IMG/VR virus record: IMGVR_UViG_3300033463_004542
Span: 1-64,000 of that record
Reading direction: 5' to 3' (one strand)
DNA length: 64,000 bases
From: a virus
Lineage: Duplodnaviria > Caudoviricetes
Part shown: piece after piece, positions 14,180 through 49,167 of the stretch
How the letters are laid out: each line of letters starts with the position of its first letter
Numbering within the stretch: position 1 is the stretch's first letter
Program-made: the position numbers and the translations under genes
The notes under the pieces: generated by a model
What the model was told of the DNA's origin: nothing
What the model saw: only the letters and a program-made list of their open reading frames with translations
The model's database searches: none

Positions 14180-14569
14180 TTAGCGTTCTGGAACCCAACC
14201 ATCATCTAAGTGACATCTATAATGACCACTATAATCATATTCAATTTTACATTCATCGGACGGTCTTATACCAAAATCTAACTTAATCTGATTTATTACA
14301 TAATCTTCAGTAATATTAGGATTCAGAAAAATAGTAGCTCTTCCTTGATTATCCCAATCAACTCTACCCCGTGGATAATAGTTATATGGTTTCTTATTTG
14401 GCTTTATATCTGCCCATAATCTCTTATGATTATAAGTATCCCCTGATTTTGCAATACCGTCTACAGTATCTACAGAACCAAAAGGGTAAGAAAGCAATTT
14501 TTCTTCATCATCAAGATACCAGAAGATACCATTAGTAGATTCTTTTGCTCCTTTAATATACTTTTTCAT
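14180..14569 (-). CDS. Hypothetical protein with MKKYIKGA leader
   Basis: 129 aa; YYPRGRV and HYRCHLD motifs. Confidence 0.65.
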   Translation of the reverse strand: MKKYIKGAKESTNGIFWYLDDEEKLLSYPFGSVDTVDGIAKSGDTYNHKRLWADIKPNKKPYNYYPRGRVDWDNQGRATIFLNPNITEDYVINQIKLDFGIRPSDECKIEYDYSGHYRCHLDDGWVPER

Positions 14570-14950
14570 TTATCTCAACTCCAGATAATTTGGCATTTCT
14601 AACCCTTCAGGAATAGAAATATCTGAATTATTCATATCCCATAAGAAGCAAACGAGTTCCCAATTATTTTCAAATTTATCTGCATATTTCTTAATAGATA
14701 CTTTTGATTTCATAAATTCTTGAAGTTCTTTTCGCTGACTACTGTTGAGTTTATCTTCTTTACCTTCGTGAAGAAAATACTCTGCTTTATCTATTCTAAT
14801 GCACGAATGGAACTTATCCCAATTATCTGAATGCAGATGAAAATGAGGAATGTTTCCTGCATCATTCGTATTAACATACACTTCAAGTTCACCTATGAAA
14901 CCCACTCTGGATATTCCATATATGTTTTGCTTATCTTTAAAAGGCATCAT
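14570..14950 (-). CDS. Hypothetical protein, DUF4160-like
   Basis: NDAGNIPHFHL motif and C-terminal W..N. Confidence 0.55.
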   Translation of the reverse strand: MMPFKDKQNIYGISRVGFIGELEVYVNTNDAGNIPHFHLHSDNWDKFHSCIRIDKAEYFLHEGKEDKLNSSQRKELQEFMKSKVSIKKYADKFENNWELVCFLWDMNNSDISIPEGLEMPNYLELR

Positions 14951-15156
14951 TATCTCGAAAGGTAGCTAATCTTTCGCTCCCTGATATCTATTATTATATA
15001 ACGATTCTTAAATTTAATTAATACCGTCTTTGAATATATTCATATATTGATATACATACACTAGTACAGAATTGAAAAAGACCTCACTCTGTGTGTCGCC
15101 TTTATCATGAGCCAACTTTGCAAGATTCTTTGTATGTTCAATGAATTCATCCATGA

Positions 15157-15627
15157 TTATTTCTCCTTAGAATACTTATCAAAAAGTTCTACATACATTG
15201 CATAATCTCTTGGAGCCAACTTATCTACTTTTGCTTCTTTCATATAATCGATAATGAATGCTAGAGCCTTCTTTATATACTCTTTATCAGTGTCATCTAC
15301 CATCTTAGTGATGCTATTGATTACACTTGTTGAAGGATTATCCTTACCTGCCTTGAAATAATTATAAGACTCTGTATTATTTATAAGGGGCTTATTCTTT
15401 CTTGGCTGTTCCGGTTCAACTTCATCAAAGTAAGCAGTATACAATTCTATATCTGGAAATACCTGATGAATTCTATGAAAGGTTTCTTCACTGGGCAGAT
15501 ACTTTCCTGCAATATAATCAGAAATAGTAGTTCTGTGCACGCCTACAGTCCGGCCAAGAGACGACTGCGTAATCTTAGGCTTGTGATTGACCATTCTTTC
15601 TTTGAGTAATTTGCCAAAGTTTGACAT
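15157..15627 (-). CDS. XRE-family HTH protein
   Basis: ITQSSLGRTVGVHRTTISDYIAGKYLP. Confidence 0.8.
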   Translation of the reverse strand: MSNFGKLLKERMVNHKPKITQSSLGRTVGVHRTTISDYIAGKYLPSEETFHRIHQVFPDIELYTAYFDEVEPEQPRKNKPLINNTESYNYFKAGKDNPSTSVINSITKMVDDTDKEYIKKALAFIIDYMKEAKVDKLAPRDYAMYVELFDKYSKEK

Positions 15628-15639
15628 GTAATATCCTCC

Positions 15640-15897
15640 TTATACTATTTGTAATTCGTTGTCACAATCGCTAGGTAGCCTAACTACTTCAACAGGGCTA
15701 TTTGCCCCTAAAGAGAAGTAATGCATTCTATCAATGCAGAAACTATTAGGTGGCTGAGTATTTGGAGCTATTCGTGGAATTGCATTAGCAAACTTTACAA
15801 ACTTCATATCATTCATGGGATGCTTAAATATAGCCCCAATAGGTAACTGATTGAATCTCATACTTGCTCCTTTCGTGCTATTTAATATCTTATTCAC
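15640..15897 (-). CDS. Hypothetical protein (likely start MRFNQL)
   Basis: ORF downstream of motif A at 15898; AAGGAG before MRFNQL. Confidence 0.55.
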   Translation of the reverse strand: MNKILNSTKGASMRFNQLPIGAIFKHPMNDMKFVKFANAIPRIAPNTQPPNSFCIDRMHYFSLGANSPVEVVRLPSDCDNELQIV

Positions 15898-15910
15898 TAT
15901 AACGATTCAT

Positions 15911-15948
15911 AAAAATATTAGGTGCAGAATATAATTCTACACCTAATA
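15911..15948 (-). terminator. Rho-independent terminator
   Basis: TATTAGGTG..CACCTAATA stem followed by a T tract on the minus strand. Confidence 0.7.
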
Positions 15949-15973
15949 AGACAGAGTATGTTAACAGATATGA

Positions 15974-16423
15974 TTAAATCTCTACTATTGCAGGACTCAT
16001 AAGAATCCACCCTTTGTTAATCTTGCCCCAATTGCCACATGTTTCAGTAATTGTTACCTTGCTTCCCTTAGGCAGTACTTTAACTTTTGCTTTATCAAGA
16101 CCAGGACCGCTGAATACATATACACCAGTAGCAGCATTTACTTGATAGATGCAAGATTTAGATTTTTCAACAGGCTTTTCTTCTTTTTTAGATTCAGCCT
16201 TAACTTCTTCCTTGACTTCAGATGCAGGTTCAGCTTCTACAACAGGCTCAACTTTAACCTCTTCTTTTACTTCCTCTACTACTTCAACAGGCTCTTCAAC
16301 CTTCTTCTTTTTAGTGGAAGTAGACTTCTTCTTTGTAGTCTTCGGCTTTTCTTCAGTTACTACTTCTTCAACTGCTTCTACAACAGGCTCTTCGACTACT
16401 TCTGCCTTTTTCTTAGTTGCCAT
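15974..16423 (-). CDS. Low-complexity E/K/V protein with C-terminal bacterial SH3 domain
   Basis: VYVFSGPG...LPKGSKVTITETCGNWGKINKGWI is SH3b-like. Confidence 0.75.
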   Translation of the reverse strand: MATKKKAEVVEEPVVEAVEEVVTEEKPKTTKKKSTSTKKKKVEEPVEVVEEVKEEVKVEPVVEAEPASEVKEEVKAESKKEEKPVEKSKSCIYQVNAATGVYVFSGPGLDKAKVKVLPKGSKVTITETCGNWGKINKGWILMSPAIVEI

Positions 16424-16455
16424 ATCAAATTCTCCTTTATATTTTTTATAAGTGA

Positions 16456-16827
16456 TTAAACGTCACCTTCTGTGAAGTCCCATAACTCTAAAGCAGCCTT
16501 AGCCTCTTCATAAGATACAGATAAACCGGATACTTTATTAAGATATGCCCTTATTGCATTGATATCAGGATAAAGTGCACGAGCCTCTCCAGGATTTTCG
16601 TCCCAATATTGATTTAAGTATCGGCAGAATTGTTTGATTTTGTCATCGCCCATCCTATTCATCCAAGCCCATCTCTGCCAATCGTATAATTCATTAACTC
16701 TATCATCCTGACTAACATCTGTTCTATCATTGATAGCATCAAATGTATCTTCATCCATTCCTTCTACAATGTCAACAAGAGTACCTAATGCGTCACAGAA
16801 CTCTTCAATCTTCTTGATATCTCTCAT
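16456..16827 (-). CDS. Hypothetical protein
   Basis: 123 aa with RBS. Confidence 0.6.
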   Translation of the reverse strand: MRDIKKIEEFCDALGTLVDIVEGMDEDTFDAINDRTDVSQDDRVNELYDWQRWAWMNRMGDDKIKQFCRYLNQYWDENPGEARALYPDINAIRAYLNKVSGLSVSYEEAKAALELWDFTEGDV

Positions 16828-16840
16828 ATTGATTTCTCCT

Positions 16841-17230
16841 TTAATCTTTCTTATGTGGTCTGTTATCCCACAAAATATTTAATATTATTCTAATTCTTGA
16901 CCTTCTAGGCTCATCGCCTACGCTGTTATACTTGTATACAAGGTTATATTTTTTAAGAGATTCTTCGTAAGAATCAATTATTGCTTGCTTTATCTCATAA
17001 TCTTCTATATATGAAATATAATCTTTTACTCTATCTAATCTGTGGTCAGGATAATCTTTTGGGTCAGGGACTAATCCTCTACAAGCAAAATCTAATGCAC
17101 AAGAAGTTGTTATTCTATTATCTAAACTAGATTCTATTTCTCTTGTTTGTTTCGCTAATTCCAACACTGCTAAATAAGGCCCTTGTGCCTCTGCTAATTC
17201 TAGATATGTTGGATTTTGATTTAGCGCCAT
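16841..17230 (-). CDS. Hypothetical protein
   Basis: 129 aa, TAATG overlap with upstream gene. Confidence 0.6.
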   Translation of the reverse strand: MALNQNPTYLELAEAQGPYLAVLELAKQTREIESSLDNRITTSCALDFACRGLVPDPKDYPDHRLDRVKDYISYIEDYEIKQAIIDSYEESLKKYNLVYKYNSVGDEPRRSRIRIILNILWDNRPHKKD

Positions 17231-18210
17231 TAGTTCTGAACTCTTCTTACTCTACTATCAATGTCGTCAATAACATTCTTTGCTGAAGTACGCTCAAGAG
17301 TACCATTACCTGTATAAGTAGAAGGGCCGCCACCTTCGTCTGTATGAACAACTATAGCATAATTGATAGGATTATCACTATCGGGGAAGATAGTAAGATG
17401 TTCTACTTCGCTCCATTGTCTTCCATTGTAATCCCAACTTGCACCCGATGTTCTCTTTCCGAAATGTACCGGAATATTATTATTGATGAAATACATCAAG
17501 ATTTTCTTCGGTAACCAGCAATTCTTTTCTTCAAATGTAAATAGCCCTTTAGAATCGGGGAGGTCATATTTCTTCTCAAAATCAGTTCTAGTATCTTCAT
17601 ACTGTGCATCTTTGAGAATTAATCTATCCATTGCTTTGAATACATCTTTATGTAAATCATTCCATCTCCATCCAAAACTATTATCCGCTTCACAAGAACC
17701 GGCTAATTCACTCCAACCGAGTAAGTGTGCAGCATAGCAATAAGTTAGGAGTTTATTTTCATCTTTTATTGCTTTGACATTTACTTTGCTACCTTTGTCA
17801 CGATAATCTTTGAGTTTCTTTATAATTGCTGCACTTGGTTTGTACTGTTCAATATCAATAGTGCGGAGATGCTCCATTAACTTGTCATCTGCTTCTTGTG
17901 CTGCCTTACGCTTCGCTTCAACTTTTTCGTCATATCTTCTTTTAACTTCGGCAGGGTCCGCATAAAAGTAAATCTTACCTAAAGAAAGATAGGGCTGAAT
18001 ATATTTTGCACCAAGGGCATTCTTAAGAAGAGGTCTAAACTTATCTGCATCAGCTTGTGAAAACTTCCACATACCATTGTCAAGTGCAAAGTTAGTCTTG
18101 TCTCTATTTCTTTCTATTACATCAGGAGTTGAATAATATCCAAATCCTAGAAGTGATTTTATCATTTCAATAGTACTAACTTCTTTAGCAGCCTTCACAT
18201 AAATCTTCAT
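17230..18210 (-). CDS. Hypothetical protein with MKIYVKAA leader
   Basis: 326-aa ORF. Confidence 0.7.
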   Translation of the reverse strand: MKIYVKAAKEVSTIEMIKSLLGFGYYSTPDVIERNRDKTNFALDNGMWKFSQADADKFRPLLKNALGAKYIQPYLSLGKIYFYADPAEVKRRYDEKVEAKRKAAQEADDKLMEHLRTIDIEQYKPSAAIIKKLKDYRDKGSKVNVKAIKDENKLLTYCYAAHLLGWSELAGSCEADNSFGWRWNDLHKDVFKAMDRLILKDAQYEDTRTDFEKKYDLPDSKGLFTFEEKNCWLPKKILMYFINNNIPVHFGKRTSGASWDYNGRQWSEVEHLTIFPDSDNPINYAIVVHTDEGGGPSTYTGNGTLERTSAKNVIDDIDSRVRRVQN

Positions 18211-18228
18211 ATTGATGCCCTCTCAATA

Positions 18229-18969
18229 TTATAAGTTGTTATATTCTTCGTAGGAACCTACAAAATATTCGCTATCGCTGATTTCGCAAGCCTCATTGTT
18301 GAAGCACATACCTTCAAGTGCCTTTACCGTTGTAGACGGAGGTAATCCAATGTCCTCTTGGACAGCCCTGAGACCAATAGCAGGATATCTATCATTTGCC
18401 TTATCAAACCTCTTAGTAATGATTTGACCGTGATATGCTTCGTCTATTTGTGCACCATACTTGTTCCTAGAAGATGCTCCAAAATATTCTGAGAAGTAAT
18501 CGTCAACTATATCATAGATTAATGATATAATTGTCTGTTGTTCTATGTCAGATAAACCACCTCTAGGGCTTATATATTGAGGAATTGCTGAAATTATGAT
18601 ATCGTCAGCAGTGTGTTCTTTTAATTCTTTTCGATAATCGTCCATCAAGTCGTTAAACATATCATGGGCTACATCAAATAAATCGGACTGTCTGCTGGCA
18701 TATACTCTTGATGCAAAGATAGGGTCATTTGTACCTAACAATTCTGATGCACATATTGGATTCGGACAAGCGTCCCAAACTTCAAGAATTTCTTCTAATG
18801 AAAGATTAACTCCTTCGTCTAAGAAGAATTCTTTTATATCTCTAGCAGACCATTTTGATTTTCCTGATTCTTCAATACCTGCATCTAATTGTTCTGCAAG
18901 TTCATAAATATCATAATCCATGTCCATTCTCCTATTCAAAATAATTAAGTTTTTATTCAGATGTATCAA
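18229..18969 (-). CDS. Hypothetical acidic multi-segment protein (real start probably near 18921)
   Basis: AGGAG before MD(M)DYDIY; internal ICAS, IFAS, VYAS motifs. Confidence 0.65.
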   Translation of the reverse strand: MIHLNKNLIILNRRMDMDYDIYELAEQLDAGIEESGKSKWSARDIKEFFLDEGVNLSLEEILEVWDACPNPICASELLGTNDPIFASRVYASRQSDLFDVAHDMFNDLMDDYRKELKEHTADDIIISAIPQYISPRGGLSDIEQQTIISLIYDIVDDYFSEYFGASSRNKYGAQIDEAYHGQIITKRFDKANDRYPAIGLRAVQEDIGLPPSTTVKALEGMCFNNEACEISDSEYFVGSYEEYNNL

Positions 18970-19295
18970 TTATATAAAATTGCAGCAATTTCTTCTACAT
19001 CACGCAACTTGCCTTTTGCAATATCTAAGATACACGCAATCATATCATCTTCACTACAGGTATAATCGCAGATGATTGCACCTATGATGGCAGCGGTTCG
19101 TTTGTTTCCGTCCTGAAATCCATGACCTATAGTAATAGACCGTATTAATGCACTTGCTAACAATCTATCATCTTCGTACCATTGTTGAACACTTAATGCA
19201 GACAGTAGATTATCTTCATTTATAACTACCGACTGCTCTCCAGCAATAGTACATACAGCAATATTTACACCTACAAGTTCATCAAAAGAAATCAT
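18966..19295 (-). CDS. Doc/Fic-family toxin
   Basis: HGFQDGNKRTA Doc-type Fic motif. Confidence 0.88.
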   Translation of the reverse strand: MISFDELVGVNIAVCTIAGEQSVVINEDNLLSALSVQQWYEDDRLLASALIRSITIGHGFQDGNKRTAAIIGAIICDYTCSEDDMIACILDIAKGKLRDVEEIAAILYN

Positions 19296-19417: not shown

Positions 19418-19472
19418 TATGCTTACTGGCCTTTCACAAAGTAATTATGTATTTTTCCACTATATCTCCTTG

Positions 19473-19838
19473 TTATTTCAATAATCTTGGTCTTAAAATC
19501 CAATTACTTGGAGGTACGCTAGCAAACCCCGGTCTAGCACCGTAGTCATAGCCTGCAGGATATTCCAAAGGTTCTTTTATCTGACAAGATATTCTCATAG
19601 GACTAAGGTCTCCGTTATCTATTTTACTGAAAATAGGGCTATTAGGATTCTGGCAATAATAGGCGTAATTTGCGCCATCCTCATCTTTGAAGTAACAGAC
19701 GTATGCTTCTCCGCCTTTACTATAATCATAATCAAATGTACTATCAGGATATAAAGTTAATGTCTTTCTAACATATCCTGCACCCGCATAATCAAATGTG
19801 CGACCTCTATTTCTATTTGAACGGATATACTTCTTCAT
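19473..19838 (-). CDS. Hypothetical protein with MKKYIRSN leader
   Basis: 121 aa. Confidence 0.65.
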   Translation of the reverse strand: MKKYIRSNRNRGRTFDYAGAGYVRKTLTLYPDSTFDYDYSKGGEAYVCYFKDEDGANYAYYCQNPNSPIFSKIDNGDLSPMRISCQIKEPLEYPAGYDYGARPGFASVPPSNWILRPRLLK

Positions 19839-19874
19839 TATGTTTCCTGGCCTTTCACAAAGTAATTCATCTGT

Positions 19875-20538: not shown

Positions 20539-20571
20539 TTACTCCTCCTGACCTTTCACAAAGTAATTTAA

Positions 20572-22469: not shown

Positions 22470-22898
22470 TTATCTACGACGAATTCTACGGGAAGCAGCA
22501 ACCTTGCGAGCTCTCATTCTACGAGCAGCTGCAATCTTGCGACCACGAACTCTTGTGGACTCCTCAACAACTTCCTCATCACCCTCAGGTGTAACGGTGA
22601 TTTCTTCGTCACCTACTGTGAAAGTAACTTCTGTTGTCTCATCGTCTACTTCATAATCAACAGGCTCACCTGTTGCTTCTGCAAGAACCTCTGCAACATC
22701 AGATGCCTCGAAAAGGATTTCCTCTTCAACAGGCTCGTCAAACTCTTCGACATCGTCAACATCGTCAATAGGCTCATCGATGATTTCATCCTCGACGAAG
22801 TCCTCATCAGCACGAATAGCTTTACGAGATGCACGAACGGGGCGCTTAGCAGAAGGAGCTGCCTTCTTGCTTGCACGTACTGTCTTTGTGAATTTCAT
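22470..22898 (-). CDS. Putative prohead core/internal protein (acidic core, Arg-rich ends)
   Basis: Charge-segregated sequence with repeated VRAS, IRAD, IAAA, VAAS motifs; adjacent to neck gene. Confidence 0.55.
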   Translation of the reverse strand: MKFTKTVRASKKAAPSAKRPVRASRKAIRADEDFVEDEIIDEPIDDVDDVEEFDEPVEEEILFEASDVAEVLAEATGEPVDYEVDDETTEVTFTVGDEEITVTPEGDEEVVEESTRVRGRKIAAARRMRARKVAASRRIRRR

Positions 22899-24114: not shown

Positions 24115-24387
24115 TTATTCTTCGTCAATAGGCTCTTCTGTGAAATAATCACCAACTTCACTTATTCCAACTGCAATTGCTTCAGAAACTTTGTCAAGGA
24201 TAGCAATAGCCTCTTGGCACTTGTCTTCTCTCCAAAGCTTTTCAATTCCGGCAATGAAATAATCGAAATCATCTGAAAGTACATCAGACTTCTCATCGAC
24301 AATATCTGATAAACTCTTTGCCTTCTCTTCATCTTCGGCAGCAGTAATCTTACTGTACTTAGGATTAGGTCTAAATCTAAATTCCAT
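24115..24387 (-). CDS. Hypothetical protein with basic leader ending ITAA
   Basis: MEFRFRPNPKYSKITAAEDEE; motif B at 24432. Confidence 0.6.
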   Translation of the reverse strand: MEFRFRPNPKYSKITAAEDEEKAKSLSDIVDEKSDVLSDDFDYFIAGIEKLWREDKCQEAIAILDKVSEAIAVGISEVGDYFTEEPIDEE

Positions 24388-24492: not shown

Positions 24493-25080
24493 ATGAAAAT
24501 TCCCAAGATTGTTATAACAGGAGGCCCATGTGCCGGAAAGTCGTCTGTTATGCCGAGGTTACAAGAAGACCTAGAAAAGATGGGATACAAAGTTTTAATT
24601 GTATCAGAATCTGCTACAGACTTTTTAACACATGGAGCAAAATATAGCGACCCAAAGTTCCAACGATACTTGATAGAGTACCAACTTGAAAGAGAAAGAA
24701 TCTACGAAGATTTTGCAAGACAACAGACAGATAAAACAATAATGTTTCTAGACCGCGGATGTCTTGACTGCAAGGCGTATATGTCAGAAGATGAATGGTC
24801 CGAAGTCCTCAAGGAACTTCATACTAATGAAATAGAAGTTAGAGATAGTTATTATGCAGTATTCCATCTGATGTCTACGGCTAGAAATAAAGATTTAATC
24901 TATACTCAAGAAAATAATGCGGCAAGATTTGAATCAAGCGAAGAAGCCGCTATAGCCGCAGATGATGCAGTATATGATGTATGGGCTTCACATCCTAGGA
25001 GGGTTGTTATAGACAATTATCCTGACTTTGAGGATAAGGTCAGAAAGTTAATAGAAGAGATACTTAATATACTTGAGTAA
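24493..25080 (+). CDS. AAA_28 / NadR-Ttd14-like P-loop protein
   Basis: IVITGGPCAGKSS Walker A, ESAT, DRG..D, NAARFES; AGGAGG RBS before ATG at 24493. Confidence 0.85.
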   Translation: MKIPKIVITGGPCAGKSSVMPRLQEDLEKMGYKVLIVSESATDFLTHGAKYSDPKFQRYLIEYQLERERIYEDFARQQTDKTIMFLDRGCLDCKAYMSEDEWSEVLKELHTNEIEVRDSYYAVFHLMSTARNKDLIYTQENNAARFESSEEAAIAADDAVYDVWASHPRRVVIDNYPDFEDKVRKLIEEILNILE

Positions 25081-25150: not shown

Positions 25151-25231
25151 AATTTATATATTATCTAAATAGCAATTAATAGGGTCAGGAGTGGCTTTTA
25201 CATAAATCTTCATAAACTATATCCCCCTATA

Positions 25232-25665: not shown

Positions 25666-25959
25666 TTATCTGTACTGATATACTAATTCTTCATCGTCAT
25701 TAGCATAAGGAATGATAAGGTCATAAACTCCCCTAAGTACACCATAACCTCCACGAACTCTATAGGTGCAGTTTATTCCAAGATTATCTCTTATATCGTC
25801 TATCAATCCTTGAAGTTCATCTTCGGTCCAATCTTTACCTATGCAGCAGCGATATCCATATGTAGTAGGAGTCATATCATGAAATCGGGACCATTCAAGA
25901 TAATTACAAATTCGCTTTACATTATTAGTAGTTGTACTCTTACTTGCATATATCTTCAT
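25666..25959 (-). CDS. Hypothetical protein with MKIYAS leader
   Basis: 97 aa. Confidence 0.6.
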   Translation of the reverse strand: MKIYASKSTTTNNVKRICNYLEWSRFHDMTPTTYGYRCCIGKDWTEDELQGLIDDIRDNLGINCTYRVRGGYGVLRGVYDLIIPYANDDEELVYQYR

Positions 25960-25981: not shown

Positions 25982-26200
25982 TTATTTGTCCATATACTTC
26001 TTATAAATTGCGTCAAATCCGCCTTCGTATTTTTCTATCCAATCAGCACATTCTTGACGACTAGAAAATCCAGAATCATATCCATTTTCATATAAGTAAT
26101 CTGATACTTTCTTAGCCTGTTCATTATTCAAATCAGAATTCTGTGAAATGAATTTAGGACTGAATATTCCATTCCAGGAACCTTTCACATATATCTTCAT
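25982..26200 (-). CDS. Hypothetical protein with MKIYVKGS leader
   Basis: AAGGAG RBS supports ATG at 26200 rather than 26320; motifs A and B upstream. Confidence 0.6.
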   Translation of the reverse strand: MKIYVKGSWNGIFSPKFISQNSDLNNEQAKKVSDYLYENGYDSGFSSRQECADWIEKYEGGFDAIYKKYMDK

Positions 26201-26264: not shown

Positions 26265-28433
26265 TTATTGAGGAGCGGTCCACTGCCAGGTAATTGTACC
26301 GGAATCATAGACTTGAGCATAGCCGTGAGATTCCATTATTTCTCGCTCTGTTTTGGATAAATCAATGTTATCATCTTGTAAGAAATTCTTAAGATTATGT
26401 TTCTGTGCATTCACTCTATTATATGCTTTATCATCTCGTGTATCTACCCACACATAATTTTCATTACTTGTTGATAATTTATCAAATCCAAGAGTTTTAT
26501 AAAGTGCTCCACGAGTATGTGCTCTATCCGAAAATGAACGAATTCTCACAGGTGAATATCTTTTTATAAAATAAGTAAACAACTTAGAAGCTCCTCCAAC
26601 AACAGAAGTATTGAGTTTATTGCAGAATCTAACTAATTCCCAACAATCAGAAAAATCTTCATTTCCTAATCCCAGTGTATTACGGAGTTTGCCAAAAGTC
26701 ATGAGAGATACTAATTCATCATTATGATATAATCCAAGTCTGACTTTTGAATGTACTCCTCCTTGTCTATGGTTGGTTTGTAAGAACTCAAAACTATCCT
26801 TACCCGGAACTGTTCGTATTTCACAATTTCGCGCATATACTTTATTCAGATTATTTCCAATCAAATTGCGTAGCATTGATATAACTATATCACGCTTGTG
26901 GGTCCATTCGTATCCAAATACATGAAATAAGAAAATTCCTGATTTTTCACACAAATCAGATTTCATTCTGTGATAACTTGGAGGTGTTACGCTATCATGT
27001 CCATGCGAAGGGAATGAAGAATTATGTGTCCATGTAGGATTCATTTCTATGCCTATTTTATATTCAGGCAAATAAATGTCAATTTCATATGGTTTGATTA
27101 AATCTCGTCTATGCCGAGTTATCTGAATATTGGGATTTATCTCTTTAATATAAGTAATAAGCTCTTCTTCAAAATAAGATAAGGAATATTTTATCATGTC
27201 AAGTTTATTATGCTTACTTAAACACCAATATACAGTAGAAGCACTTGCACCCGAAGCTTCTTCTACTTGTTTATAAGTCGGCTTATCTTTGAAATGTAGT
27301 TTAATAAATTCTTCGGGATTATTTAAAAATGCTTCAAGTTCTTTTTCTTTAGATGGGTCTATCATAATAGCTTTATGGAATTCTAAAGATTCTCTATAAT
27401 GAGGTCTGCCATATTTCCTGGTCATTGTATCTGCAATTTTTGATTGTATTTCGGGATTCTGTGCAGCATTTGGAAATCCGTATTTTTGAATATTAGTTTC
27501 TTTAATCTTTTCCACAAGCTTGGGAGATTGTAGAACATATGGAGCATCATACCTGTCAATCATAGTTTGTTTGACTCGTGCTTGAATATCTGGAGATTGT
27601 AAAGCATGTTCAACACCATATCTGTCTTTATTTGTTTGCTTCATCTTATTTTGTACATCTGGATTCTGCATAGGGTTATCATATCCTGTTTTAACCTTGT
27701 AATTAGCAAGACCCTTTTTGCGAAGTTCTTCTGATTGAAACGGATTTGTAACACCATAATGTTTCATCAAAGTATCTTCAGTTTTAGATTTCCAATCTTC
27801 TGTCTGACTTTTCCAATCAGCTCCAAACTTCTCTCTATTTGTTTGAATAGATTTTTCTTTGTATGCTTCTTTAAGTTGAGGAAACCTCTTAACACCATAC
27901 TTATTTTGCATTGTAGAATCCATTTTACCTTTAAATTCTTCACTATGCATAGGATGGTCAACGCCATATTTATCAATCATAGTTTGCTTAGCTTTTTCAC
28001 GACATTCAGCTTTAGAAAAGGGATTTCCGTTTATGAACTTGAGTTGTGTAGCACATTCTTTAGAACAGGTTTGTGGTATGCCTGTAGCACCTCCAGAACG
28101 ATATTTCTCTATACTAAATGATTTTCCACAAATAACACATTCACGATAATGAATGTCTGGACAGACAGATTGAGTATTATTTTTAGGAATGAATTCTTTT
28201 CCGCATAAAGCACACTTTCGAGGATGATTAGCATAATAAGAAACAGATTGCTTATGTGCATATTCATTCTGGCATTTCTGAGAACAGCATGAAGGATAAG
28301 TAAGTGTACACTTGGATTCATAATCTGCTCCACAGTTAGCACACTTGCGTATAACAAGTTTATTACAATATTTCTGTCTAGATGATTTAGGCATAAATTC
28401 ATCTCCGCAGATAACGCATCTTTTAATTTTCAT
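26265..28433 (-). CDS. Hef-like putative homing endonuclease (Zn-finger repeats, KYGV.NP repeats, PD-(D/E)XK/Vsr-like domain, C-terminal GNAT-like domain)
   Basis: CVICG/CANCG repeats; about eight KYG..P repeats; EIDIYLPEYKIGIEMN.TWTH; WELVRFC..VVGGASKL. Confidence 0.75.
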   Translation of the reverse strand: MKIKRCVICGDEFMPKSSRQKYCNKLVIRKCANCGADYESKCTLTYPSCCSQKCQNEYAHKQSVSYYANHPRKCALCGKEFIPKNNTQSVCPDIHYRECVICGKSFSIEKYRSGGATGIPQTCSKECATQLKFINGNPFSKAECREKAKQTMIDKYGVDHPMHSEEFKGKMDSTMQNKYGVKRFPQLKEAYKEKSIQTNREKFGADWKSQTEDWKSKTEDTLMKHYGVTNPFQSEELRKKGLANYKVKTGYDNPMQNPDVQNKMKQTNKDRYGVEHALQSPDIQARVKQTMIDRYDAPYVLQSPKLVEKIKETNIQKYGFPNAAQNPEIQSKIADTMTRKYGRPHYRESLEFHKAIMIDPSKEKELEAFLNNPEEFIKLHFKDKPTYKQVEEASGASASTVYWCLSKHNKLDMIKYSLSYFEEELITYIKEINPNIQITRHRRDLIKPYEIDIYLPEYKIGIEMNPTWTHNSSFPSHGHDSVTPPSYHRMKSDLCEKSGIFLFHVFGYEWTHKRDIVISMLRNLIGNNLNKVYARNCEIRTVPGKDSFEFLQTNHRQGGVHSKVRLGLYHNDELVSLMTFGKLRNTLGLGNEDFSDCWELVRFCNKLNTSVVGGASKLFTYFIKRYSPVRIRSFSDRAHTRGALYKTLGFDKLSTSNENYVWVDTRDDKAYNRVNAQKHNLKNFLQDDNIDLSKTEREIMESHGYAQVYDSGTITWQWTAPQ

Positions 28434-28673: not shown

Positions 28674-30137
28674 TCAGAATGCGCCAAGAACCTTACCAGA
28701 TACTACCGTGGCGGGATTGACGATTTTGGTTGCATACATTGTTGCGAAGCCGCTCTGTACAGATGCATTAGCAAGGCCGATGTCATCTGTCTTCATCATA
28801 GGCATATACTCGCCGTAAAGAGCGCTCGAACGACGGATGTCGTTGGACTTGCAGCACATAACCCAAGTATTAGGGTCATAGTAAGGGTCAACGTAGATTG
28901 TGTACTGGTCAAGAGTACCGAGCTTATAAGGACCAACCGGGTCTTCAGCAGAAGCTGCTACGAAACCAGGAAGTCTAGAAATAAGTGAAGCAACCTTTGT
29001 ACCAACGATAAGTCTGTTCGGCCTTGCGAGGTTCGTTGCCTGATATACGCTGTTAGCAGCATCATCAAGCTTGAACTTGAAGAGGTTCAGGAAGTCCGAA
29101 GGCATAACTGCACCATTGAATGCAAGAGATGCATCCCAGTTATACTGAGGAGCATATGTTGCTGCTGCAGCGAGCTGGTTGAAGCAATAGCTGTTGATTT
29201 CAGCTGTGAGTTCGGAGAATGCAGCCTCCTTGGAAATCTCACCAATGTTTGCACCGTACTCCTGCTGAGCTGCGAATGCAGAATAGATGGACCAATAAGA
29301 TGCGATTTCATGAGCCTCAGCAATCATGTTAATCTCATCGAGCTTGAGATAACCCTTAGCCATCTTTGCGCCATAGTTACCAGCTGCATCGGGACCAACT
29401 GTCTCGTTGTCATACTCATAAGTAGCAAGAACTTCGTCACCTGTGAGTGTTGTGATAACGCCTGTAGCATAATTGATTGAACCAGCAGAAGCACCGCCGC
29501 CTACAGGAATGATGTCACCAGCACCATCGTCAACATACTTTGTTGTTGTGCCGCCTGTCGTAACTGCAAAGGAAACAGAACCAGGAAGGATAGGTGTATA
29601 AGCGAGTGTGCCGTTTGCAACTGTCTCGTTCTTTACAACTCTACCTGTGAAGTTCGGGTCATAACCCTGACGGTTAACAAATGCAGAAGAAAGGATATCG
29701 CCTGCCTTTGTCTCGCCCTTTGTGTTCTCTGCGATGAACTTGAAGTAAGGAATAATCTGCTGTCTTGACTTCATTGCAACAGAACCAAATACATCAAGAA
29801 CGAGGAGCTTCTGAACGAACATCGGAAGAAGCTCGACGAAATCAGGCTTTGCCATGATATTAGAAGTATTTGTAGCTGCTGTGATTGCAGACATCTTACG
29901 TGTGTTAGCGATAAGCTGGTTAGCAAAGATTCTCTGCTCAGGAGTGAGGTTAAGAGAAGCTTCTACAGACTGCCTTGCAATAGGGCGAGCCTTTCTGGAA
30001 CGACCAGCTGCTGTAATAGAAGTACCAGCATTGATGCTACGAGGTGCAGAATAACCAATACGAGAAGGTCTGCTCATTCTGCTAGAAGCAGTAATGCTAG
30101 AAGGAGTAACTCTACGAGTTGTCTTTTTAATAGCCAT
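28674..30137 (-). CDS. Major capsid protein (T4 gp23-like)
   Basis: LLVLDVFGSVAM, ELTAEIN, GTLDQYTIYVDPY, YGEYMP, GFATMYA patterns; follows the protease gene. Confidence 0.9.
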   Translation of the reverse strand: MAIKKTTRRVTPSSITASSRMSRPSRIGYSAPRSINAGTSITAAGRSRKARPIARQSVEASLNLTPEQRIFANQLIANTRKMSAITAATNTSNIMAKPDFVELLPMFVQKLLVLDVFGSVAMKSRQQIIPYFKFIAENTKGETKAGDILSSAFVNRQGYDPNFTGRVVKNETVANGTLAYTPILPGSVSFAVTTGGTTTKYVDDGAGDIIPVGGGASAGSINYATGVITTLTGDEVLATYEYDNETVGPDAAGNYGAKMAKGYLKLDEINMIAEAHEIASYWSIYSAFAAQQEYGANIGEISKEAAFSELTAEINSYCFNQLAAAATYAPQYNWDASLAFNGAVMPSDFLNLFKFKLDDAANSVYQATNLARPNRLIVGTKVASLISRLPGFVAASAEDPVGPYKLGTLDQYTIYVDPYYDPNTWVMCCKSNDIRRSSALYGEYMPMMKTDDIGLANASVQSGFATMYATKIVNPATVVSGKVLGAF

Positions 30138-30176: not shown

Positions 30177-31640
30177 TTACAGTACTGCTAAATTGTCACT
30201 GCCGTCATCAATATCGTCAACATCTACGGGAAGAATTGCTTCTTCATAAGACGGATTAACTCCGATGTTAGATGTATTCATTGCTCCTTGGATTAAGTTT
30301 TCCAATTCACGAACGGAAGTTGACGCAGTTACTGTTAAGCCAGATGCTTGAATTCCTATCGCATTAGCATAAATATTAGCATACGCTTGCTGATATTCAA
30401 GTAATGCACTCTCCATAGCCTGAACTCTGTCCTCGAGGGACTCAAGTTCTCTATTAGAAGCAGATATCTCAGCCTTAAGATTTCTCAATTGCTCACCACG
30501 GTTTGATGCTTCTTTCGTCGCATTCGTACTTGCAACAACAGTTTTGTTAAGTTCGGAACGCAAGTCTGCAATAGCAGCATCTTTTGCTTGGATATCAGAT
30601 GAGGAACTCTCAATCTTCTGTCTATAAATAAGGTTGTTTTTACGAGCCGATTCTAATTCTTTCATTATTTCAGAATTCTTATTGTTGATAGCTCGTAATT
30701 CGTTCTCAAGTTGCTTGTTAGCAACGACTAACTTCTTTCTTGATTTGTTAGATTCATTAATCTTTGATTGCATTAATTTTTCTTGACTTGCTGTTATTCT
30801 TTCGATAGTTTTTAATCTTCTTGTATATTTTGTTTTTGTTGCTAATAAATCGGAATGTAACTTCTTATTTGCTTTTACTTCCTCAAGATAAAGTTCAGTC
30901 AGGGCTCTGAGTTTCTTGCCCATTATTTCTTCTTTATCTTCATCAGAACAGTCAGGGCATTCATCATCGGCTACTCCGATATCTGCTTTACGAGCCTCAA
31001 GTTTCTTGTACTGTTCAGAATCAGGATTAAACTGTTCCTGCATTGCTTCAATTGTATTGATATTAGTGATATCACTAATATTCTTTTCAATTGCAGCACA
31101 TACTCTCTTATATTTAACCTGGTCGTCAAGATTCTTTGATGCAGCTATCTGCTGGAACTCAGGAATTGCGTCTACATAAGCAGGGAACGCAACTAAATCA
31201 AAACCTCTAAATACAAATGTTTCGGGGTCTACATTTCCTTCGGAATCTACATCACCTGCGCCACGAATCGAGATGCCCCACTGCACGCCTGCGTCAATAA
31301 ATGATTTAACTATACGACCTACAGGAGTATCAATAAGGTCAAATGTACCATAAATCTCATCGTTATCTGTGATTTCCATTGATGTCATGACAATACAAGC
31401 ATCTTTGAAGTCTTGACATCCAGGGTCTTCAGGGTGACCTAAGAATCCGATGTAGTAGCCATGTTCGATAGCATCCTTGTACTCATCGGAAGCAAGTAAA
31501 TGTTCAAATAACTCACGATTTAATTTCATATCGTTGTTATTGAATACTGCTGCGTCACAGCACTTTCCGGTGAAAGTTCCGATAATTGAGGATTTCTTCG
31601 GCTCTTCTATAGCTGATGTTATTTTAGCTTTATTAGCCAT
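30177..31640 (-). CDS. Prohead protease (T4 gp21-like) fused to coiled-coil scaffold
   Basis: GFLGHP, TPVGRIV, GISIRGAG, FDLVAFPA motifs; long C-terminal coiled coil. Confidence 0.88.
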   Translation of the reverse strand: MANKAKITSAIEEPKKSSIIGTFTGKCCDAAVFNNNDMKLNRELFEHLLASDEYKDAIEHGYYIGFLGHPEDPGCQDFKDACIVMTSMEITDNDEIYGTFDLIDTPVGRIVKSFIDAGVQWGISIRGAGDVDSEGNVDPETFVFRGFDLVAFPAYVDAIPEFQQIAASKNLDDQVKYKRVCAAIEKNISDITNINTIEAMQEQFNPDSEQYKKLEARKADIGVADDECPDCSDEDKEEIMGKKLRALTELYLEEVKANKKLHSDLLATKTKYTRRLKTIERITASQEKLMQSKINESNKSRKKLVVANKQLENELRAINNKNSEIMKELESARKNNLIYRQKIESSSSDIQAKDAAIADLRSELNKTVVASTNATKEASNRGEQLRNLKAEISASNRELESLEDRVQAMESALLEYQQAYANIYANAIGIQASGLTVTASTSVRELENLIQGAMNTSNIGVNPSYEEAILPVDVDDIDDGSDNLAVL

Positions 31641-31708
31641 TTATAATCGCCTCCATAGGTATGTATATATGATTATAGATGCCATTATAAAAGGTTATTA
31701 ATTAAATA

Positions 31709-32072: not shown

Positions 32073-32099
32073 AAAAGCAGGCCTAAATTGACCTGCTTT
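32073..32099 (-). terminator. Terminator hairpin
   Basis: AAAGCAGG..CCTGCTTT(T). Confidence 0.7.
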
Positions 32100-32628
32100 A
32101 GAGGTAATTGCTCATATCTGCCGCATATTTTGTATCACTGCAAGCATCAACGTCTTCGTAGACATTAAGGCATTCTGCAAACTTAGGATGTTCTTCAAAG
32201 AATTCATCAAGAGCAGAACCACTAAGAACTCTATCACGTATATCTGCAAGTAAATCATTTTTCCCTGCAAGTGAACCGGGCCAGAACTGATATTTTTCAT
32301 GCGGGTCTGAACGATTGATAAAGATATAGAGAGGAGCCATCTTGCTATATATGTCAAAGAATCTGCTTCCTTGACCTTCTGCCGAAGTATCCCATCTACC
32401 CACTGCATCCCAGTCTATTCCGCCGTGATTATCAATTCTACTTCCGATACGAGCAAGTTTTACTGCTCCTTCAAATGTAAGAGGTTGCCACAGTTCAAGT
32501 CCACCATCTTCTGCTAACTTTACTGCTTCATCAGAAGTAGGTTCGCCATTGAATTGTTTCCAAGCTCTACGAGATTTTGCACTTGCTTGTATATAACTTG
32601 ACGGATACTTCGTGAATTTTCTCTTCAT
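32098..32628 (-). CDS. Hypothetical protein with MKRKFTKYPSSYIQAS leader
   Basis: 176 aa; W..SA....FF..Y....PLYIFI...EKYQF pattern recalled from phage proteins. Confidence 0.65.
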   Translation of the reverse strand: MKRKFTKYPSSYIQASAKSRRAWKQFNGEPTSDEAVKLAEDGGLELWQPLTFEGAVKLARIGSRIDNHGGIDWDAVGRWDTSAEGQGSRFFDIYSKMAPLYIFINRSDPHEKYQFWPGSLAGKNDLLADIRDRVLSGSALDEFFEEHPKFAECLNVYEDVDACSDTKYAADMSNYL

Positions 32629-34160: not shown

Positions 34161-34550
34161 TTATTCAATACACTTTGTATATTCTTCATCAAATTCCCAA
34201 AAGAGTGGAGTGACATATTTTTGTAAATCACTCGGCTTCTTAATCTTTCTCATATCATAAGTAGTTCTGATAGTGAATTCAAAATCATCTACTTTACAAT
34301 CTACTTCAATTGTTTTAGAATCCTCATCGATGTATGCTCTCAAATCAATGATATCATCCATCTGAAATGAATATGATTCTTCATGTCTTAACCTATCTTC
34401 AAGAGGGATTTCAATATATTCTATTTCATCATCACGAGTGAAGAAATCATCGTTTTCAAGGAAAGACTGTGCTTTTATTTCTTCTTGCGATTTTACCCAA
34501 TCTTGAATTCTCTTAGACGCAGTGATTTTTTGATTCTTACGTATCTTCAT
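34161..34550 (-). CDS. Hypothetical protein with MKIRKNQKITAS leader
   Basis: AAGGAG RBS supports start near 34550. Confidence 0.6.
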   Translation of the reverse strand: MKIRKNQKITASKRIQDWVKSQEEIKAQSFLENDDFFTRDDEIEYIEIPLEDRLRHEESYSFQMDDIIDLRAYIDEDSKTIEVDCKVDDFEFTIRTTYDMRKIKKPSDLQKYVTPLFWEFDEEYTKCIE

Positions 34551-36169: not shown

Positions 36170-36421
36170 TTAATCCTCAACAAAATTTACTGTATAAAAG
36201 ACAACCTCTTTACCAGTATTTGATGCCTTTTCAAGCAACTCACACTCAATATTGTATTGTTGCTCACTTTCAAGTGCATAATTACCATTAGCAGTATAAG
36301 GTTTGTCAAACTCTAAAGTAGTACCATCATCAAATTCTGCAATAGCTTCCCAGTGAGCAGATTTATAAGAAGATGCCCTTACATAATTACTGGGATATTT
36401 AGTAAATGTTCTCTTTGCCAC
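36170..36421 (-). CDS. Hypothetical protein with AKRTFTKYPSNYVRAS leader
   Basis: GTG start with AAGGAG RBS. Confidence 0.6.
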   Translation of the reverse strand: MAKRTFTKYPSNYVRASSYKSAHWEAIAEFDDGTTLEFDKPYTANGNYALESEQQYNIECELLEKASNTGKEVVFYTVNFVED

Positions 36422-36621: not shown

Positions 36622-36666
36622 AGGAAATTTCTCCTTATAATAAAATTATCTGTAAGTATAAAAGGT

Positions 36667-37125
36667 TTACGGTATCTCAGATGTAGTCGAATCCTCATCA
36701 TGATAGAAACTCTCTGTTGTCCTATAAGAATTTACTCCAGAAACAGTAAGGTTATAAGTATCAGGTGCTACCTCCCCCTCTTGTAGCGGAGTGCTTTTAT
36801 TATCTATTCTTCTGTGGAGATTGGGATATGTATAACCTGAAGATGAATATTCAATTACAATATGTGATTCATTAGCAGGAGCAGCGGTTACAAATGTAAC
36901 TTTCAGATTACTTTTGTCTAATTTATAATCAGTTGAAGAAACAACAACTCCATCAACTGTGACTTCAGTTATACTAATAGCATTTGTAGATAAATCAAAA
37001 GTTACTTTGGTGCCATCACCTATGAACTTATCCTTCACTTCGTGAATTTCTGATTCTTTTGCAATCTCTTCTGGAGTTGCTGGTTTAGCAGGACCTTGTG
37101 CCATTTTGTAATCGTCTATACTCAT
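36667..37125 (-). CDS. Virion protein with FIGDG beta-domain
   Basis: FIGDGTKVTFDL...VTFVTAAP. Confidence 0.6.
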   Translation of the reverse strand: MSIDDYKMAQGPAKPATPEEIAKESEIHEVKDKFIGDGTKVTFDLSTNAISITEVTVDGVVVSSTDYKLDKSNLKVTFVTAAPANESHIVIEYSSSGYTYPNLHRRIDNKSTPLQEGEVAPDTYNLTVSGVNSYRTTESFYHDEDSTTSEIP

Positions 37126-47280: not shown

Positions 47281-47293
47281 TTGTTACCTCCTC

Positions 47294-48400
47294 TCATGTA
47301 TCCATTGGTTCTCCTGCTTGTGTCATTATTCCATCTACTTTAGGAACAGGAGCGTTATAATGTTGTTCTTTACCCTTGTCAAGAGTATCAACAGGAAGAT
47401 ACCCGATTTCGTTGACAATATCTTGTCCAATAGGCTCCCCTTCAGGATGTTCATCTGTAGGAGGTGTCCTATAACTCGCTAAGTCAACTGTTCTATTATA
47501 TCTAAGGTTATACTTTGGGTCATTTACATCAACTTCGGTCATTTCATCGACAGTAGGACTTACTCCTAAACTGAATATTGGTTCGCTAAATAACGACTTA
47601 ACAATATGTTCATTATTAGCCATCTGAAGTGAATTCAAGGCCCTGTAACCTGCATTAATTGTAGGCTGAGATTCTGCTTCAGAATTTCTTGCATATACAG
47701 GTTGTCTCTTATCATGAGTATTTATTATTTCAGGAGCAGACTCATGTTTCATTCTCTGCATCCTTGCATAATCATTCCTTGTATAATGGCCAACTTTTGT
47801 AGGGCCGATGATTCCAGTAGCGTCTCCGGCTTTTGCAAGTCTTGCGTCTACTGAAATTCTTGTTAAAGAATCAATCCTAACACCTGCATACTGAAAACAA
47901 TACATTCCAAGCGGCCTAACATATTCAATACAAGTATCTATCGGCTTCTCATCTGTAAAATATATTACATTAATATAGCCCATATCTGTATTAGATTCAA
48001 CATACACTGAGTTATTAGGAATTGAGGTATCTTCTAATCTATCAAAAAGGATATCATTCTCTTCTCCATAGGCATTTATATCTTTTTGTTTGAGATTAAC
48101 CTCTGCGGCTAATGTAACTCCAAGGTTACTTCCTTTATACTTTATCATAGACATAAAGTATAACATAACAAAGCGATTAAATGCTTTGCATAATCCTGCT
48201 CTATCATCATATTTGTATCCCATTGTATCGCCAAGCATCCAAAGTAGATGACTAGGACAACGAAGAGGGTCATATAAATCTGCAGTATTTTCTATATCAA
48301 ACTGTAATCTAGTCAAAGCATATTCAAACCACTTTATGAAAAAGCGGAAATCTGCAGAAGATTTGTATATAGAAGGAACTGAGATATCGCTTATTTTCAT
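47294..48400 (-). CDS. Baseplate protein (P2 gpI-like N-terminal domain)
   Basis: YDPLRCPSHLLWMLGDTMG...IKYKGS..G. Confidence 0.65.
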   Translation of the reverse strand: MKISDISVPSIYKSSADFRFFIKWFEYALTRLQFDIENTADLYDPLRCPSHLLWMLGDTMGYKYDDRAGLCKAFNRFVMLYFMSMIKYKGSNLGVTLAAEVNLKQKDINAYGEENDILFDRLEDTSIPNNSVYVESNTDMGYINVIYFTDEKPIDTCIEYVRPLGMYCFQYAGVRIDSLTRISVDARLAKAGDATGIIGPTKVGHYTRNDYARMQRMKHESAPEIINTHDKRQPVYARNSEAESQPTINAGYRALNSLQMANNEHIVKSLFSEPIFSLGVSPTVDEMTEVDVNDPKYNLRYNRTVDLASYRTPPTDEHPEGEPIGQDIVNEIGYLPVDTLDKGKEQHYNAPVPKVDGIMTQAGEPMDT

Positions 48401-48410
48401 ATTATATTAA

Positions 48411-48773
48411 TCAGAAGCCTAACTTAGCATTCATTTCTTTCTTAAATTGACGATATTCAGGAACTTCGCTTGACATGCTGATTCCTAAAGAATCAATCTG
48501 GCCATAATCAAATATTTGACCGGGGTCTTCCATTATATCATCATATGACATATTTGTAGAATTAAGCTCAGCAACCATGTCAGATAAGCTATTATAAGAT
48601 ACAAAATCATCTTCAAATGATGTATATCTTACGTAATCGCCTTTAATTCGACACTTTGCTCCGTATTCTTTGCATTCTTTAATTGCAGATTTAATATCAT
48701 CGATAGATATCCGACTATTGTCTGAACTTGCTCTTACATAACTTTGAGGATAAACTCTGTTTGTTCTTTTCAT
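48411..48773 (-). CDS. Hypothetical protein with MKRTNRVYPQSYVRAS leader
   Basis: 120 aa with RBS. Confidence 0.6.
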   Translation of the reverse strand: MKRTNRVYPQSYVRASSDNSRISIDDIKSAIKECKEYGAKCRIKGDYVRYTSFEDDFVSYNSLSDMVAELNSTNMSYDDIMEDPGQIFDYGQIDSLGISMSSEVPEYRQFKKEMNAKLGF

Positions 48774-48852
48774 GTTTGTGTCTCCTTTATCTTATTTTTT
48801 TTCAAAAATTCTATTGCTTTCTCTAGACTGATATATCACTGATTTTCATAGA

Positions 48853-49167
48853 TTAGTGATTCATATAGATATAATATGTATGAACTTCAGGGCCCCAATC
48901 GGAACCTGTATCTTCTGTTGCATAACTTTCGTTCTTAACAACGCTGAAGTTATCTTTTACAAGCCAATCGGCTCTGATATGGTCATGTTTCCAATCGCCT
49001 TCAATTAAGAATGATATGACAGCAATTTCAGGAATAGGTTCATAACGCTTATAGTTATATAACTCTACATGACTTATTCTATTCTCATTTAATAATGCTT
49101 CAACATCATCTGCTAATTGAATGATGTCATCCATGCTACCAGAACTTGATTTTATATACTTTTTCAT
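48853..49167 (-). CDS. Hypothetical protein with MKKYIKSS leader
   Basis: Internal ATG at 49167 with upstream GGGTG. Confidence 0.6.
   Translation of the reverse strand: MKKYIKSSSGSMDDIIQLADDVEALLNENRISHVELYNYKRYEPIPEIAVISFLIEGDWKHDHIRADWLVKDNFSVVKNESYATEDTGSDWGPEVHTYYIYMNH

Follow-up and report, generated by a model that had tools for sequence, protein, structure and literature searches.

Many otherwise unrelated proteins of an uncultured tailed phage begin with the same short leader. The DNA in question is a stretch of 64,000 nucleotides (the window), corresponding to bases 1-64000 of the 98,091-bp IMG/VR record IMGVR_UViG_3300033463_004542 (G000), which is 58% complete according to CheckV; positions above 64,000 that are given for this record lie outside the window. 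Our preferred reading, to which we assign a probability of roughly 0.6, is that the leader is a propeptide resembling the capsid targeting sequence (CTS) of phage T4, matched to a gp21-type prohead protease with a changed, herpesvirus-like specificity. The site at the end of the leader would thus be the cleavage motif of the prohead protease of the phage's own clade. The DNA has a GC content of ~36% and its genes lie almost all on the minus strand, mostly behind strong AAGGAG-type ribosome-binding sites. These strong Shine-Dalgarno (SD) sequences suggest a Firmicute host, which is therefore the probable one. When 20 kb were compared by megablast with GenBank phages, no match was found (i.e., there is no close relative among them).

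A shared N-terminal leader

Gene calling over the whole record yielded 129 genes, 19 of which start with M-K-x-Y-[IV]-x-[AGST] and one with MKIYA-S. Three more carry a 16-residue leader that ends in Y-[IV]-x-A-S. An earlier note on this DNA had reported about a dozen such leaders between positions 14180 and 49167. All 12 of the N-termini that it listed are indeed found there, on the minus strand, and most of their starts have an SD-like GGAG/AAGGAG upstream. Nevertheless, the count was too low, and most tagged genes lie outside that span, at 77-94 kb.

The leader is confined to protein N-termini on the coding strand. The back-translated pattern ATGAARNNNTAYRTNAARDSN has five matches in the window versus 0.00 in 100 shuffles, and in the whole record there are 15 matches on the coding strand, none on the other strand, and none in a reversed control. 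At the protein level, K-x-Y-[IV]-[KRS]-[AGS]-[ASTN] occurs 13 times in ~28,000 residues, in every case at residue 2 and never internally. Selection acts on the peptide and not on the DNA, because the leader codons vary synonymously (Lys AAA/AAG; Tyr TAT/TAC; Ile ATT/ATC/ATA; Arg CGT/AGA; Ser TCN and AGT) and the DNA upstream of tagged genes differs from gene to gene. On the same two grounds, we discard an element acting at the nucleotide level (an RNA motif, for instance, or a recombination cassette). Nor do the tagged proteins form one paralogous family, given that most pairs lack similarity past residue 8, and the absence of a hydrophobic core and of Cys from the leader speaks against a signal peptide or lipoprotein.

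The short leaders come in two classes. In class 1, MKxY-I-K-A↓S (the arrow marks the presumed cleavage site), residue 3 is free and can be R, I, K, L, or V. In class 2, MKxY[AS], 25 of 26 leaders have Ile as their third residue, which would occupy P3 in MK-I-Y-A↓S. Judging from these sequences, the two classes would fit one cleavage rule. The 25 cases are not independent, since most class-2 leaders belong to one expanded paralogous family in G001, a 200-kb, 100% complete record that was retrieved by its protease gene. We noted in G001, between 48 and 148 kb, about 30 small paralogues (100-130 aa) starting with MKIY[A/C/S/G]-, which have a conserved GKD[LVI]WV near residue 20 and frequently a Cys at the presumed P1. 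As for the boundary of the leader, the information content calculated from 105 class-1 leaders of five genomes is 5.5, 3.8, 1.9, 4.2, 3.1, 2.7, 2.5, and 1.7 bits at positions 1-8 (position 8 being outside the selection rule), and 0.5 falling to 0.15 bits at positions 9-16. This drop past residue 8 agrees with the previous observation that similarity stops after the motif.

The prohead protease and the motif in its presumed substrates

The genome encodes both a gp21-type protease and a gp23-type capsid protein (i.e., a T4-type head module). The major capsid protein (28674..30137, minus strand) belongs to the T4 gp23 family, with a score of 74.6 bits for Pfam Gp23. The prohead protease (30177..31640, minus strand), in which a domain of gp21/assemblin fold is joined to a scaffold-like, coiled-coil tail, has a match to phrog_207 (head maturation protease). 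It scores 26.0 bits against Pfam Peptidase_S77 (PF03420, the family of T4 gp21), for which the cut-off is 27; PF03420 is precomputed for most of its close homologues, and the Pfam search gave no S21 match. An AlphaFold model built with 103 sequences has a predicted local distance difference test (pLDDT) score of 96-98 at residues 20-160. Its best match in the PDB is T4 gp21 (5JBL), with a template modeling (TM) score of 0.65 and a root-mean-square deviation of 2.3 Å over 141 columns. The matches that follow are almost entirely herpesvirus proteases and are weak (E about 2e-3, TM about 0.4). Within the protease domain, formed by residues 1-165, H69 and S124 align with H85 and S140 of T4 gp21, in which an H85A/S140A double mutant is inactive (PMC12991175), and D148 is invariant. 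Since residues 170-487 form a long helical tail in the model, we consider the protein to be a protease-scaffold fusion. Two large genes are HNH/homing-endonuclease-like (phrog_3339, 3e-119), one at 26265-28433 (minus strand), just downstream of the capsid gene, and the other at 88031-89665 of the record. Both begin with a similar Cys-rich N terminus, ..C..CG..F.PK.

The terminal motif of the leaders is [IV]-x-[A/S/G] plus a following [S/A/T], and it recurs in the proteins that a prohead protease would be expected to cut. The capsid propeptide contains ITAS (residues 15-18), ITAA (41-44), VEAS (58-61), and ITA↓A (85-88), the last of which directly precedes the conserved TNT(S/T)NIMA(K/R)PDF. 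In five relatives, the capsid propeptide is variable, but it always ends in [IV]-[TM]-[AG]-A, followed by a T at which conservation begins. A scaffold- or core-like acidic protein of 142 aa (22470..22898, minus strand; start MKFTKTVRAS) has TVRA↓S and PVRA↓S near its N terminus, and IAAA and VAAS in its basic C terminus. The protease tail holds seven [IV]-x-A-S motifs, or nine if [IVL]-x-A-[SA] is counted. A conserved IAA↓S is located in the low-pLDDT linker after the catalytic domain, and ITAS, VVAS, ISAS, IQAS, and VTAS are conserved as well, with IQA↓S and VTA↓S lying 47-55 residues from the C terminus. The motif is therefore repeated in the capsid propeptide and the scaffold-like protein, as had been noticed before, and in the protease tail too. 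What had been overlooked is that such a motif would imply Ala/Ser at P1, unlike T4, in which it is Glu. Accordingly, the presumed substrates do not point to cleavage at [L/I]-x-E, the capsid boundary being ITA↓A and the tails being rich in [IV]xA[SA]; the specificity is here deduced from the substrate-like sequences themselves.

One further protein deserves mention with respect to this motif. A tagged protein of 438 aa (86174-87490 of the record, outside the window) with an LRV repeat contains three internal VEAC..[IV]T[ASC]S linkers, 90-105 residues apart, making it a candidate polyprotein that could be cut by the same protease. Separately, the protease tail (30177-30320) holds GAMNTSNIGVNPSY, which resembles the predicted mature N terminus of the capsid protein, AATNTSNIMAKPDF (29850-29885, residues 85-98). 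Both segments are conserved in relatives, as illustrated by ATNTSNIGAMPSF in G001, and from this likeness the scaffold tail may mimic the N-arm of the capsid protein or share a binding site with it.

The motif content of the tail co-varies with a residue close to the active site. We searched 1.84 billion representatives with the protease domain and compared each match's own tail. This was done for 134 representatives, 80 within the clade (45-79% identical) and 54 outside it (33-42% identical). Per 1,000 tail residues, the median number of [IV]xA[SA] motifs is 13 within the clade versus 0 outside, while [LIV]xE amounts to 48 outside versus about 20 within. An Arg three residues past the catalytic His is present in 53 of the 54 outside proteins, as it is in T4 gp21 (R88) and in the proteases of the cultured phages HSE3 and LIS04. 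It is found in none of the 80 proteins of the clade, 68 of which have a Pro and 8 a Val, the others having S, A, or T. In the window protease, Pro73 and Cys75 replace an Arg and a Glu that are near-invariant in Glu-type relatives (R88 and N90 in T4), which makes them candidate determinants of P1 specificity. The loss of a conserved positive charge along with Glu-type sites would be chemically sensible. The capsid N termini of cultured relatives have L-x-E-type motifs.

Next, we asked how far the tag extends, using relatives collected via the protease gene (72-73% identity) and via a collection-wide scan for MKxYIKAS. Five complete genomes, G001, G005, G006, G007, and G008 (149-254 kb, each 100% complete), have 11, 21, 20, 4, and 8 pattern matches, respectively, always on one strand only and with none in the reversed control. 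The capsid proteins of the last four are 60-66% identical to that of the window. With one gene-calling rule applied throughout, tagged genes make up 16% of the genes in the present record, 15% in G001, 17% in G002, 13% in G005, and 7% in G006, and none of 155 open reading frames (ORFs) on the noncoding strand carries the tag. This rule favors an in-frame start that yields a leader, but the resulting bias is small, as judged from the strand control and from how rare the motif is inside proteins. All genomes that are at least 90% complete and have at least four matches possess the head module of the clade. G009 (92% complete) has one match and no clade capsid gene, and we treated that match as a chance occurrence. 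G012 and G013 have 6-7 matches and no protease was seen in them; being 48-59% complete, they are uninformative either way. Among cultured phages, the nearest are Bacillus phage vB_BceM-HSE3, Streptococcus phage vB_SagM-GXN1, and Listeria phage LIS04, whose capsid proteins are 27-31% identical to that of the window. HSE3 and LIS04 share the protease-then-capsid gene order, and in the 482 kb of these three phages, the tag pattern has no match. This shows that the tag is a trait of the clade and not a general property of AT-rich phages.

The closest known parallel is the T4 CTS, which is sufficient for the packaging of foreign proteins, with residues 4 and 7 important for targeting and residues 8 and 10 for processing at [L/I]-x-E (PMC9026906). 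What the earlier note stated about T4, that the sequence MKTYQEFIAE is removed by gp21, is correct (PMC9026906; T4 record), and ipII and ipIII start with it in the T4 record, IPI having a similar one. As here, the T4 CTS is a short N-terminal peptide common to unrelated proteins, and it goes together with an S77-fold protease, a gp23-family capsid protein, and a hypervariable set of cargo. It ends in the P3-x-P1 motif of the phage's own protease, as the present tag presumably does. Even the layout is alike, in that M-K-x-Y comes first and the presumed processing site of the present tag follows or overlaps it. Homology to MKTYQEFIAE is nonetheless not established because only these four residues, M-K-x-Y, are common to both. 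In contrast to T4, the tag here has 5-7 residues instead of 10, and the presumed P1 is Ala/Ser/Gly instead of Glu. There are 20-42 tagged genes per genome instead of a handful, the cargo is acidic instead of basic, and two leader lengths are interchangeable. The host is probably a Firmicute, and the present system is known from sequences alone.

The inferred specificity brings to mind a different group of enzymes. Herpesvirus assemblins have the cleavage consensus [V/L/I]-x-A↓S, and the R site of human cytomegalovirus (HCMV) is Y-V-K-A↓S. Partial support for this consensus comes from an HCMV substrate containing ..Asn-Ala-Ser-Ser.., from Y253 and K255 at the C terminus of the HCMV protease, and from the assemblin of pseudorabies virus (PrV), which ends in Ala225. 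These sites have the same form as the rule deduced here, Y-[IV]-[KRQ]-A↓S. Assemblins (HCMV pUL80a; pUL26 of herpes simplex virus and PrV) also resemble the window protease in fold class and in being fused to a C-terminal scaffold, with one site (presumed in the phage protease) at the domain junction and a second some tens of residues from the C terminus (PMC4498786). In contrast, sequence similarity is undetectable, and where assemblins have the second His of the Ser-His-His triad, the window protease has Asp148 as its third conserved residue. We know of no herpesvirus in which many proteins bear such a site as a portable tag. We regard the resemblance as functional and not as family membership, and the similarity in specificity may be convergent. 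Giant phages offer a third comparison (phiKZ gp175, 201phi2-1, and SPN3US gp245). In these, many different head and ejection proteins are processed by one gp21-related protease, with a three-residue motif and propeptides that have redundant sites (PMC9026906). Cleavage there is after Glu (S/A/G-x-E), unlike the cleavage presumed here, and the propeptides are long and protein-specific with no shared 7-residue tag.

We also noted that the head-tail module is dispersed. The genes for portal (gp20-like), tail tube, and baseplate hub (95016-96533, 89767-90312, and 65502-66320 of the record) are outside the window, far from the protease-capsid pair, and clusters of tagged genes lie between. Head and tail genes are much closer together in HSE3 and LIS04.

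Tagged genes and their cargo

All tagged genes of the window described here are on the minus strand. Those with a class-1 leader are 14180..14569 (MKKYIKGA.., 129 aa) and 17230..18210 (MKIYVKAA.., 326 aa), neither of which has a cargo with a recognizable family, 19473..19838 (MKKYIRSN.., 121 aa), 25982..26200 (MKIYVKGS.., 72 aa), which lies directly downstream of both promoter-like motifs discussed below, and 48853..49167 (MKKYIKSS.., 104 aa). The gene at 25666..25959 (97 aa) has the class-2 leader MKIYA-S.., in which I-Y-A↓S itself fits [IV]-x-A↓S.

The long leader is carried by three genes. The first, 32098..32628, encodes a protein of 176 aa with the N terminus MKRKFTKYPSSYIQAS and the leader MKRKFTKYPSSYIQA↓S; in G001, a homologue with the same long leader adjoins the protease gene. 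The second, 36170..36421, has a GTG start and encodes 83 aa, with the N terminus MAKRTFTKYPSNYVRAS and the leader MAKRTFTKYPSNYVRA↓S, and it is the second gene downstream of a late-type promoter-like motif. The third, 48411..48773, encodes 120 aa, with the N terminus MKRTNRVYPQSYVRAS and the leader MKRTNRVYPQSYVRA↓S. Looser versions are found at 34161..34550 (MKIRKNQKITA↓S; 129 aa, N terminus MKIRKNQKITAS) and 24115..24387 (..PKYSKITA↓A, 90 aa). A G001 gene that starts with ..YTGIKA↓S is likened to the latter by its similar place only.

Two loci appear to be degenerate forms. A 19-codon ORF at 25154..25213 (minus strand) consists of a perfect leader, MKIYVKAT, soon followed by a stop. It adjoins 24493-25080, the sole plus-strand gene of its region, and is probably the remnant of a tagged gene. 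The gene at 13719..14153 (minus strand), whose leader has decayed to MKLYIFRL, is paralogous to the tagged gene 84599-85048.

To compare the cargo without its tag, the first ten residues were removed before families were built across five genomes. The 131 tagged proteins then fall into 89 families, 66 of which are singletons. Tagged and untagged members are mixed in 12 families, and in three of these mixed families, the same cargo has a short leader in one protein and a long KYPSxY[IV]xAS leader in another. For example, the cargo of 32098-32628 is homologous to residues 113-235 of the class-1 leucine-rich repeat (LRR) protein encoded by 77564-79201. A leaderless counterpart also exists, with an MKLYVRTA..GNVGIWW protein corresponding to an MTSGYVGIWW protein. 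The leader is therefore portable, as first proposed, since it is found on unrelated cargo, and homologous cargo can bear either type of leader or none.

As for the nature of the cargo, 128 tagged proteins match only 10 Pfam families, with BspA-type LRR found four times, GNAT, LRV, and zinc ribbon once each, and faint matches to DUF1347 and ferritin once each; none of these matches corresponds to a replication, lysis, or tail function. By comparison, 128 untagged controls matched for genome and length hit 48 Pfam families, including DnaB, Toprim, holin, portal, and integrase. When Pfam and PHROGs were searched with the tagged proteins of the present record, only LRR_5/LRR_8, LRV, and weak zinc-ribbon matches were obtained, and two large cargo proteins had no usable match in the ESM Atlas. 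The cargo also turns over quickly, with a homologue in G001 for 5 of the 19 tagged proteins of the record versus 66 of its 135 proteins overall.

These properties bear on one alternative, in which the prohead protease does cut the tagged proteins, but these are dispensable parts of the core or scaffold that are degraded and expelled during maturation instead of delivered. It has some appeal because several tagged genes are in the head region (32628, 34550, 36421, and 24387), both termini of the scaffold-like protein carry sites, the cargo is acidic like the middle of the scaffold, and the tagged 438-aa protein has three internal linkers. We nevertheless regard it as unlikely. Scaffold parts are normally conserved, yet most cargo families are singletons, and the 5 of 19 figure was obtained with a relative whose protease is 72-73% identical. 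Moreover, BspA-type LRR proteins and a GNAT acetyltransferase are among the cargo, most of which has a site at the N terminus only.

Finally, we looked at the promoter-like context of the tagged genes. In the whole record, [AG]ACCTTnnAT is found at 25 places on the coding strand versus three on the other strand, and this motif sits 30-60 nt upstream of the protease-capsid operon and of tail and baseplate genes. Examples are at 31686-31696, 36657-36667, 52102-52112, and 61834-61844. It also precedes, by 30-50 nt, the tagged genes starting at 88034, 87490, 82627, and 26200, and it precedes the operons containing 80307-79201 and 36421. A second promoter-like motif, AATCGTTATA, is found 12 times versus once by strand and precedes nonstructural genes. 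On this soft evidence, many tagged genes, although not all, look co-expressed with the head genes.

Mechanism, alternatives, and significance

Together, these observations suggest the following scheme. Tagged proteins would be made with the head proteins and would join the scaffold core of the prohead through their tag. Once activated, the protease would cut after residue 7 in class-1 leaders, after residue 5 in class-2 leaders, and after residue 15-16 in long leaders (..Y-V-R-A↓S). The same enzyme would trim the capsid propeptide, dismantle the scaffold-like protein, and free itself from its scaffold tail. The trimmed cargo would remain inside the head, possibly to exit together with the DNA. 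Cleavage, packaging, injection, and cargo function are predictions in this scheme. Delivery of the trimmed proteins to the host is plausible by analogy, and a role against host defenses, raised previously, is speculation.

Several points weigh against this scheme. When taken alone, [IV]-x-[AS]-[AS] is a weak motif. It is present at 0.3% of internal positions, and over the first 20 residues its enrichment is no more than 3.4-fold. The perfect co-variation between tail motifs and Arg loss amounts to a single observation, since the switch from Glu to Ala is one phylogenetic event. To our knowledge, a tagged share of 7-17% of the genes is far above that of any characterized system, and so many proteins may exceed what one capsid can hold. 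With a median isoelectric point of 5.1, the cargo is acidic, unlike the basic internal proteins of T4. The nonstructural motif AATCGTTATA is also found before a tagged cluster of eight genes (85048-81482) and before the operon whose last gene is 14569, and some tagged genes thus do not look late. Lastly, neither the 20-kb megablast nor the homologue search found a cultured member of the clade.

Some of these points could be turned into a different explanation, that the tag is an N terminus optimized for expression or stability (initiation, early elongation, or protection from degradation), which has nothing to do with the capsid and whose likeness to the protease sites is coincidental. The AT-rich codons and the Lys at +2 would suit such a role, as would the large tagged share, the location of some tagged genes behind the nonstructural motif, and the weakness of the bare motif. 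We find this explanation quite unlikely, considering that 482 kb of cultured Firmicutes phages sharing the head gene order hold no match to the pattern, and that the tag occurs only with one protease clade. In addition, small residues are kept at positions 7-8, where Ser is encoded by both TCN and AGT; the long leader repeats the Y-[IV]-x-A-S core at residues 12-16; and residue 3 is almost always Ile in class-2 leaders, as fits the cleavage rule.

It is very unlikely that the tag is cut by, or sends proteins to, another machine, be it a pathway of secretion or membrane insertion or a Prp-type N-terminal protease of the host. Prp trims ribosomal protein L27 and, in staphylococcal phage 80alpha, the capsid and scaffold proteins, which share an N-terminal motif cut by this host enzyme, and Firmicutes, the likely host group judging from the strong SD sequences, have Prp. 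However, the Prp motif, ..L-N-L-Q-F-F↓A-S-K, is unlike MKxYIKA↓S, a leader devoid of a hydrophobic stretch or Cys is no signal peptide, and a host enzyme predicts neither that the motif fills the tail of the phage protease nor that it tracks the clade and the loss of the Arg.

The CTS-like propeptide reading, which we retain, can be extended into a broader evolutionary proposal that we put forward tentatively, as somewhat less than an even bet. In one S77 lineage, Ala/Ser would have replaced Glu at P1 as the conserved Arg was lost, and the assemblin rule Y-[IV]-[KQR]-A↓S would thereby have been reached in a herpes-like protease-scaffold fusion. A tag of 5-7 residues, read by the same prohead, would load the capsid with dozens of unrelated, fast-exchanged proteins, representing 7-17% of the proteome and including polyproteins with internal linker sites, for delivery with the DNA.

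If the CTS-like reading is right, it would have several implications. As far as our literature search found, this would be the first S77 prohead protease with a P1 residue other than Glu, and the R88-equivalent position would be a single candidate residue for P1 specificity. A phage enzyme reading an assemblin kind of site would bear on the shared origin of maturation systems. A packaging tag of seven residues would be a compact tool for capsid loading. Some CBASS systems (antiphage signaling through cyclic oligonucleotides) sense T4 gp21 through an I/LxE loop (PMC12991175), and more speculatively, altered protease specificity could matter for escape from protease-sensing immunity. The protease family alone numbers over 1200 homologues in public data. 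Tagging, loading, and clipping as in T4 would be able to grow from a few proteins to about one-sixth of a proteome, and abundant uncultured phages of the rumen or gut would carry a very large and fast-changing set of virion-delivered proteins.

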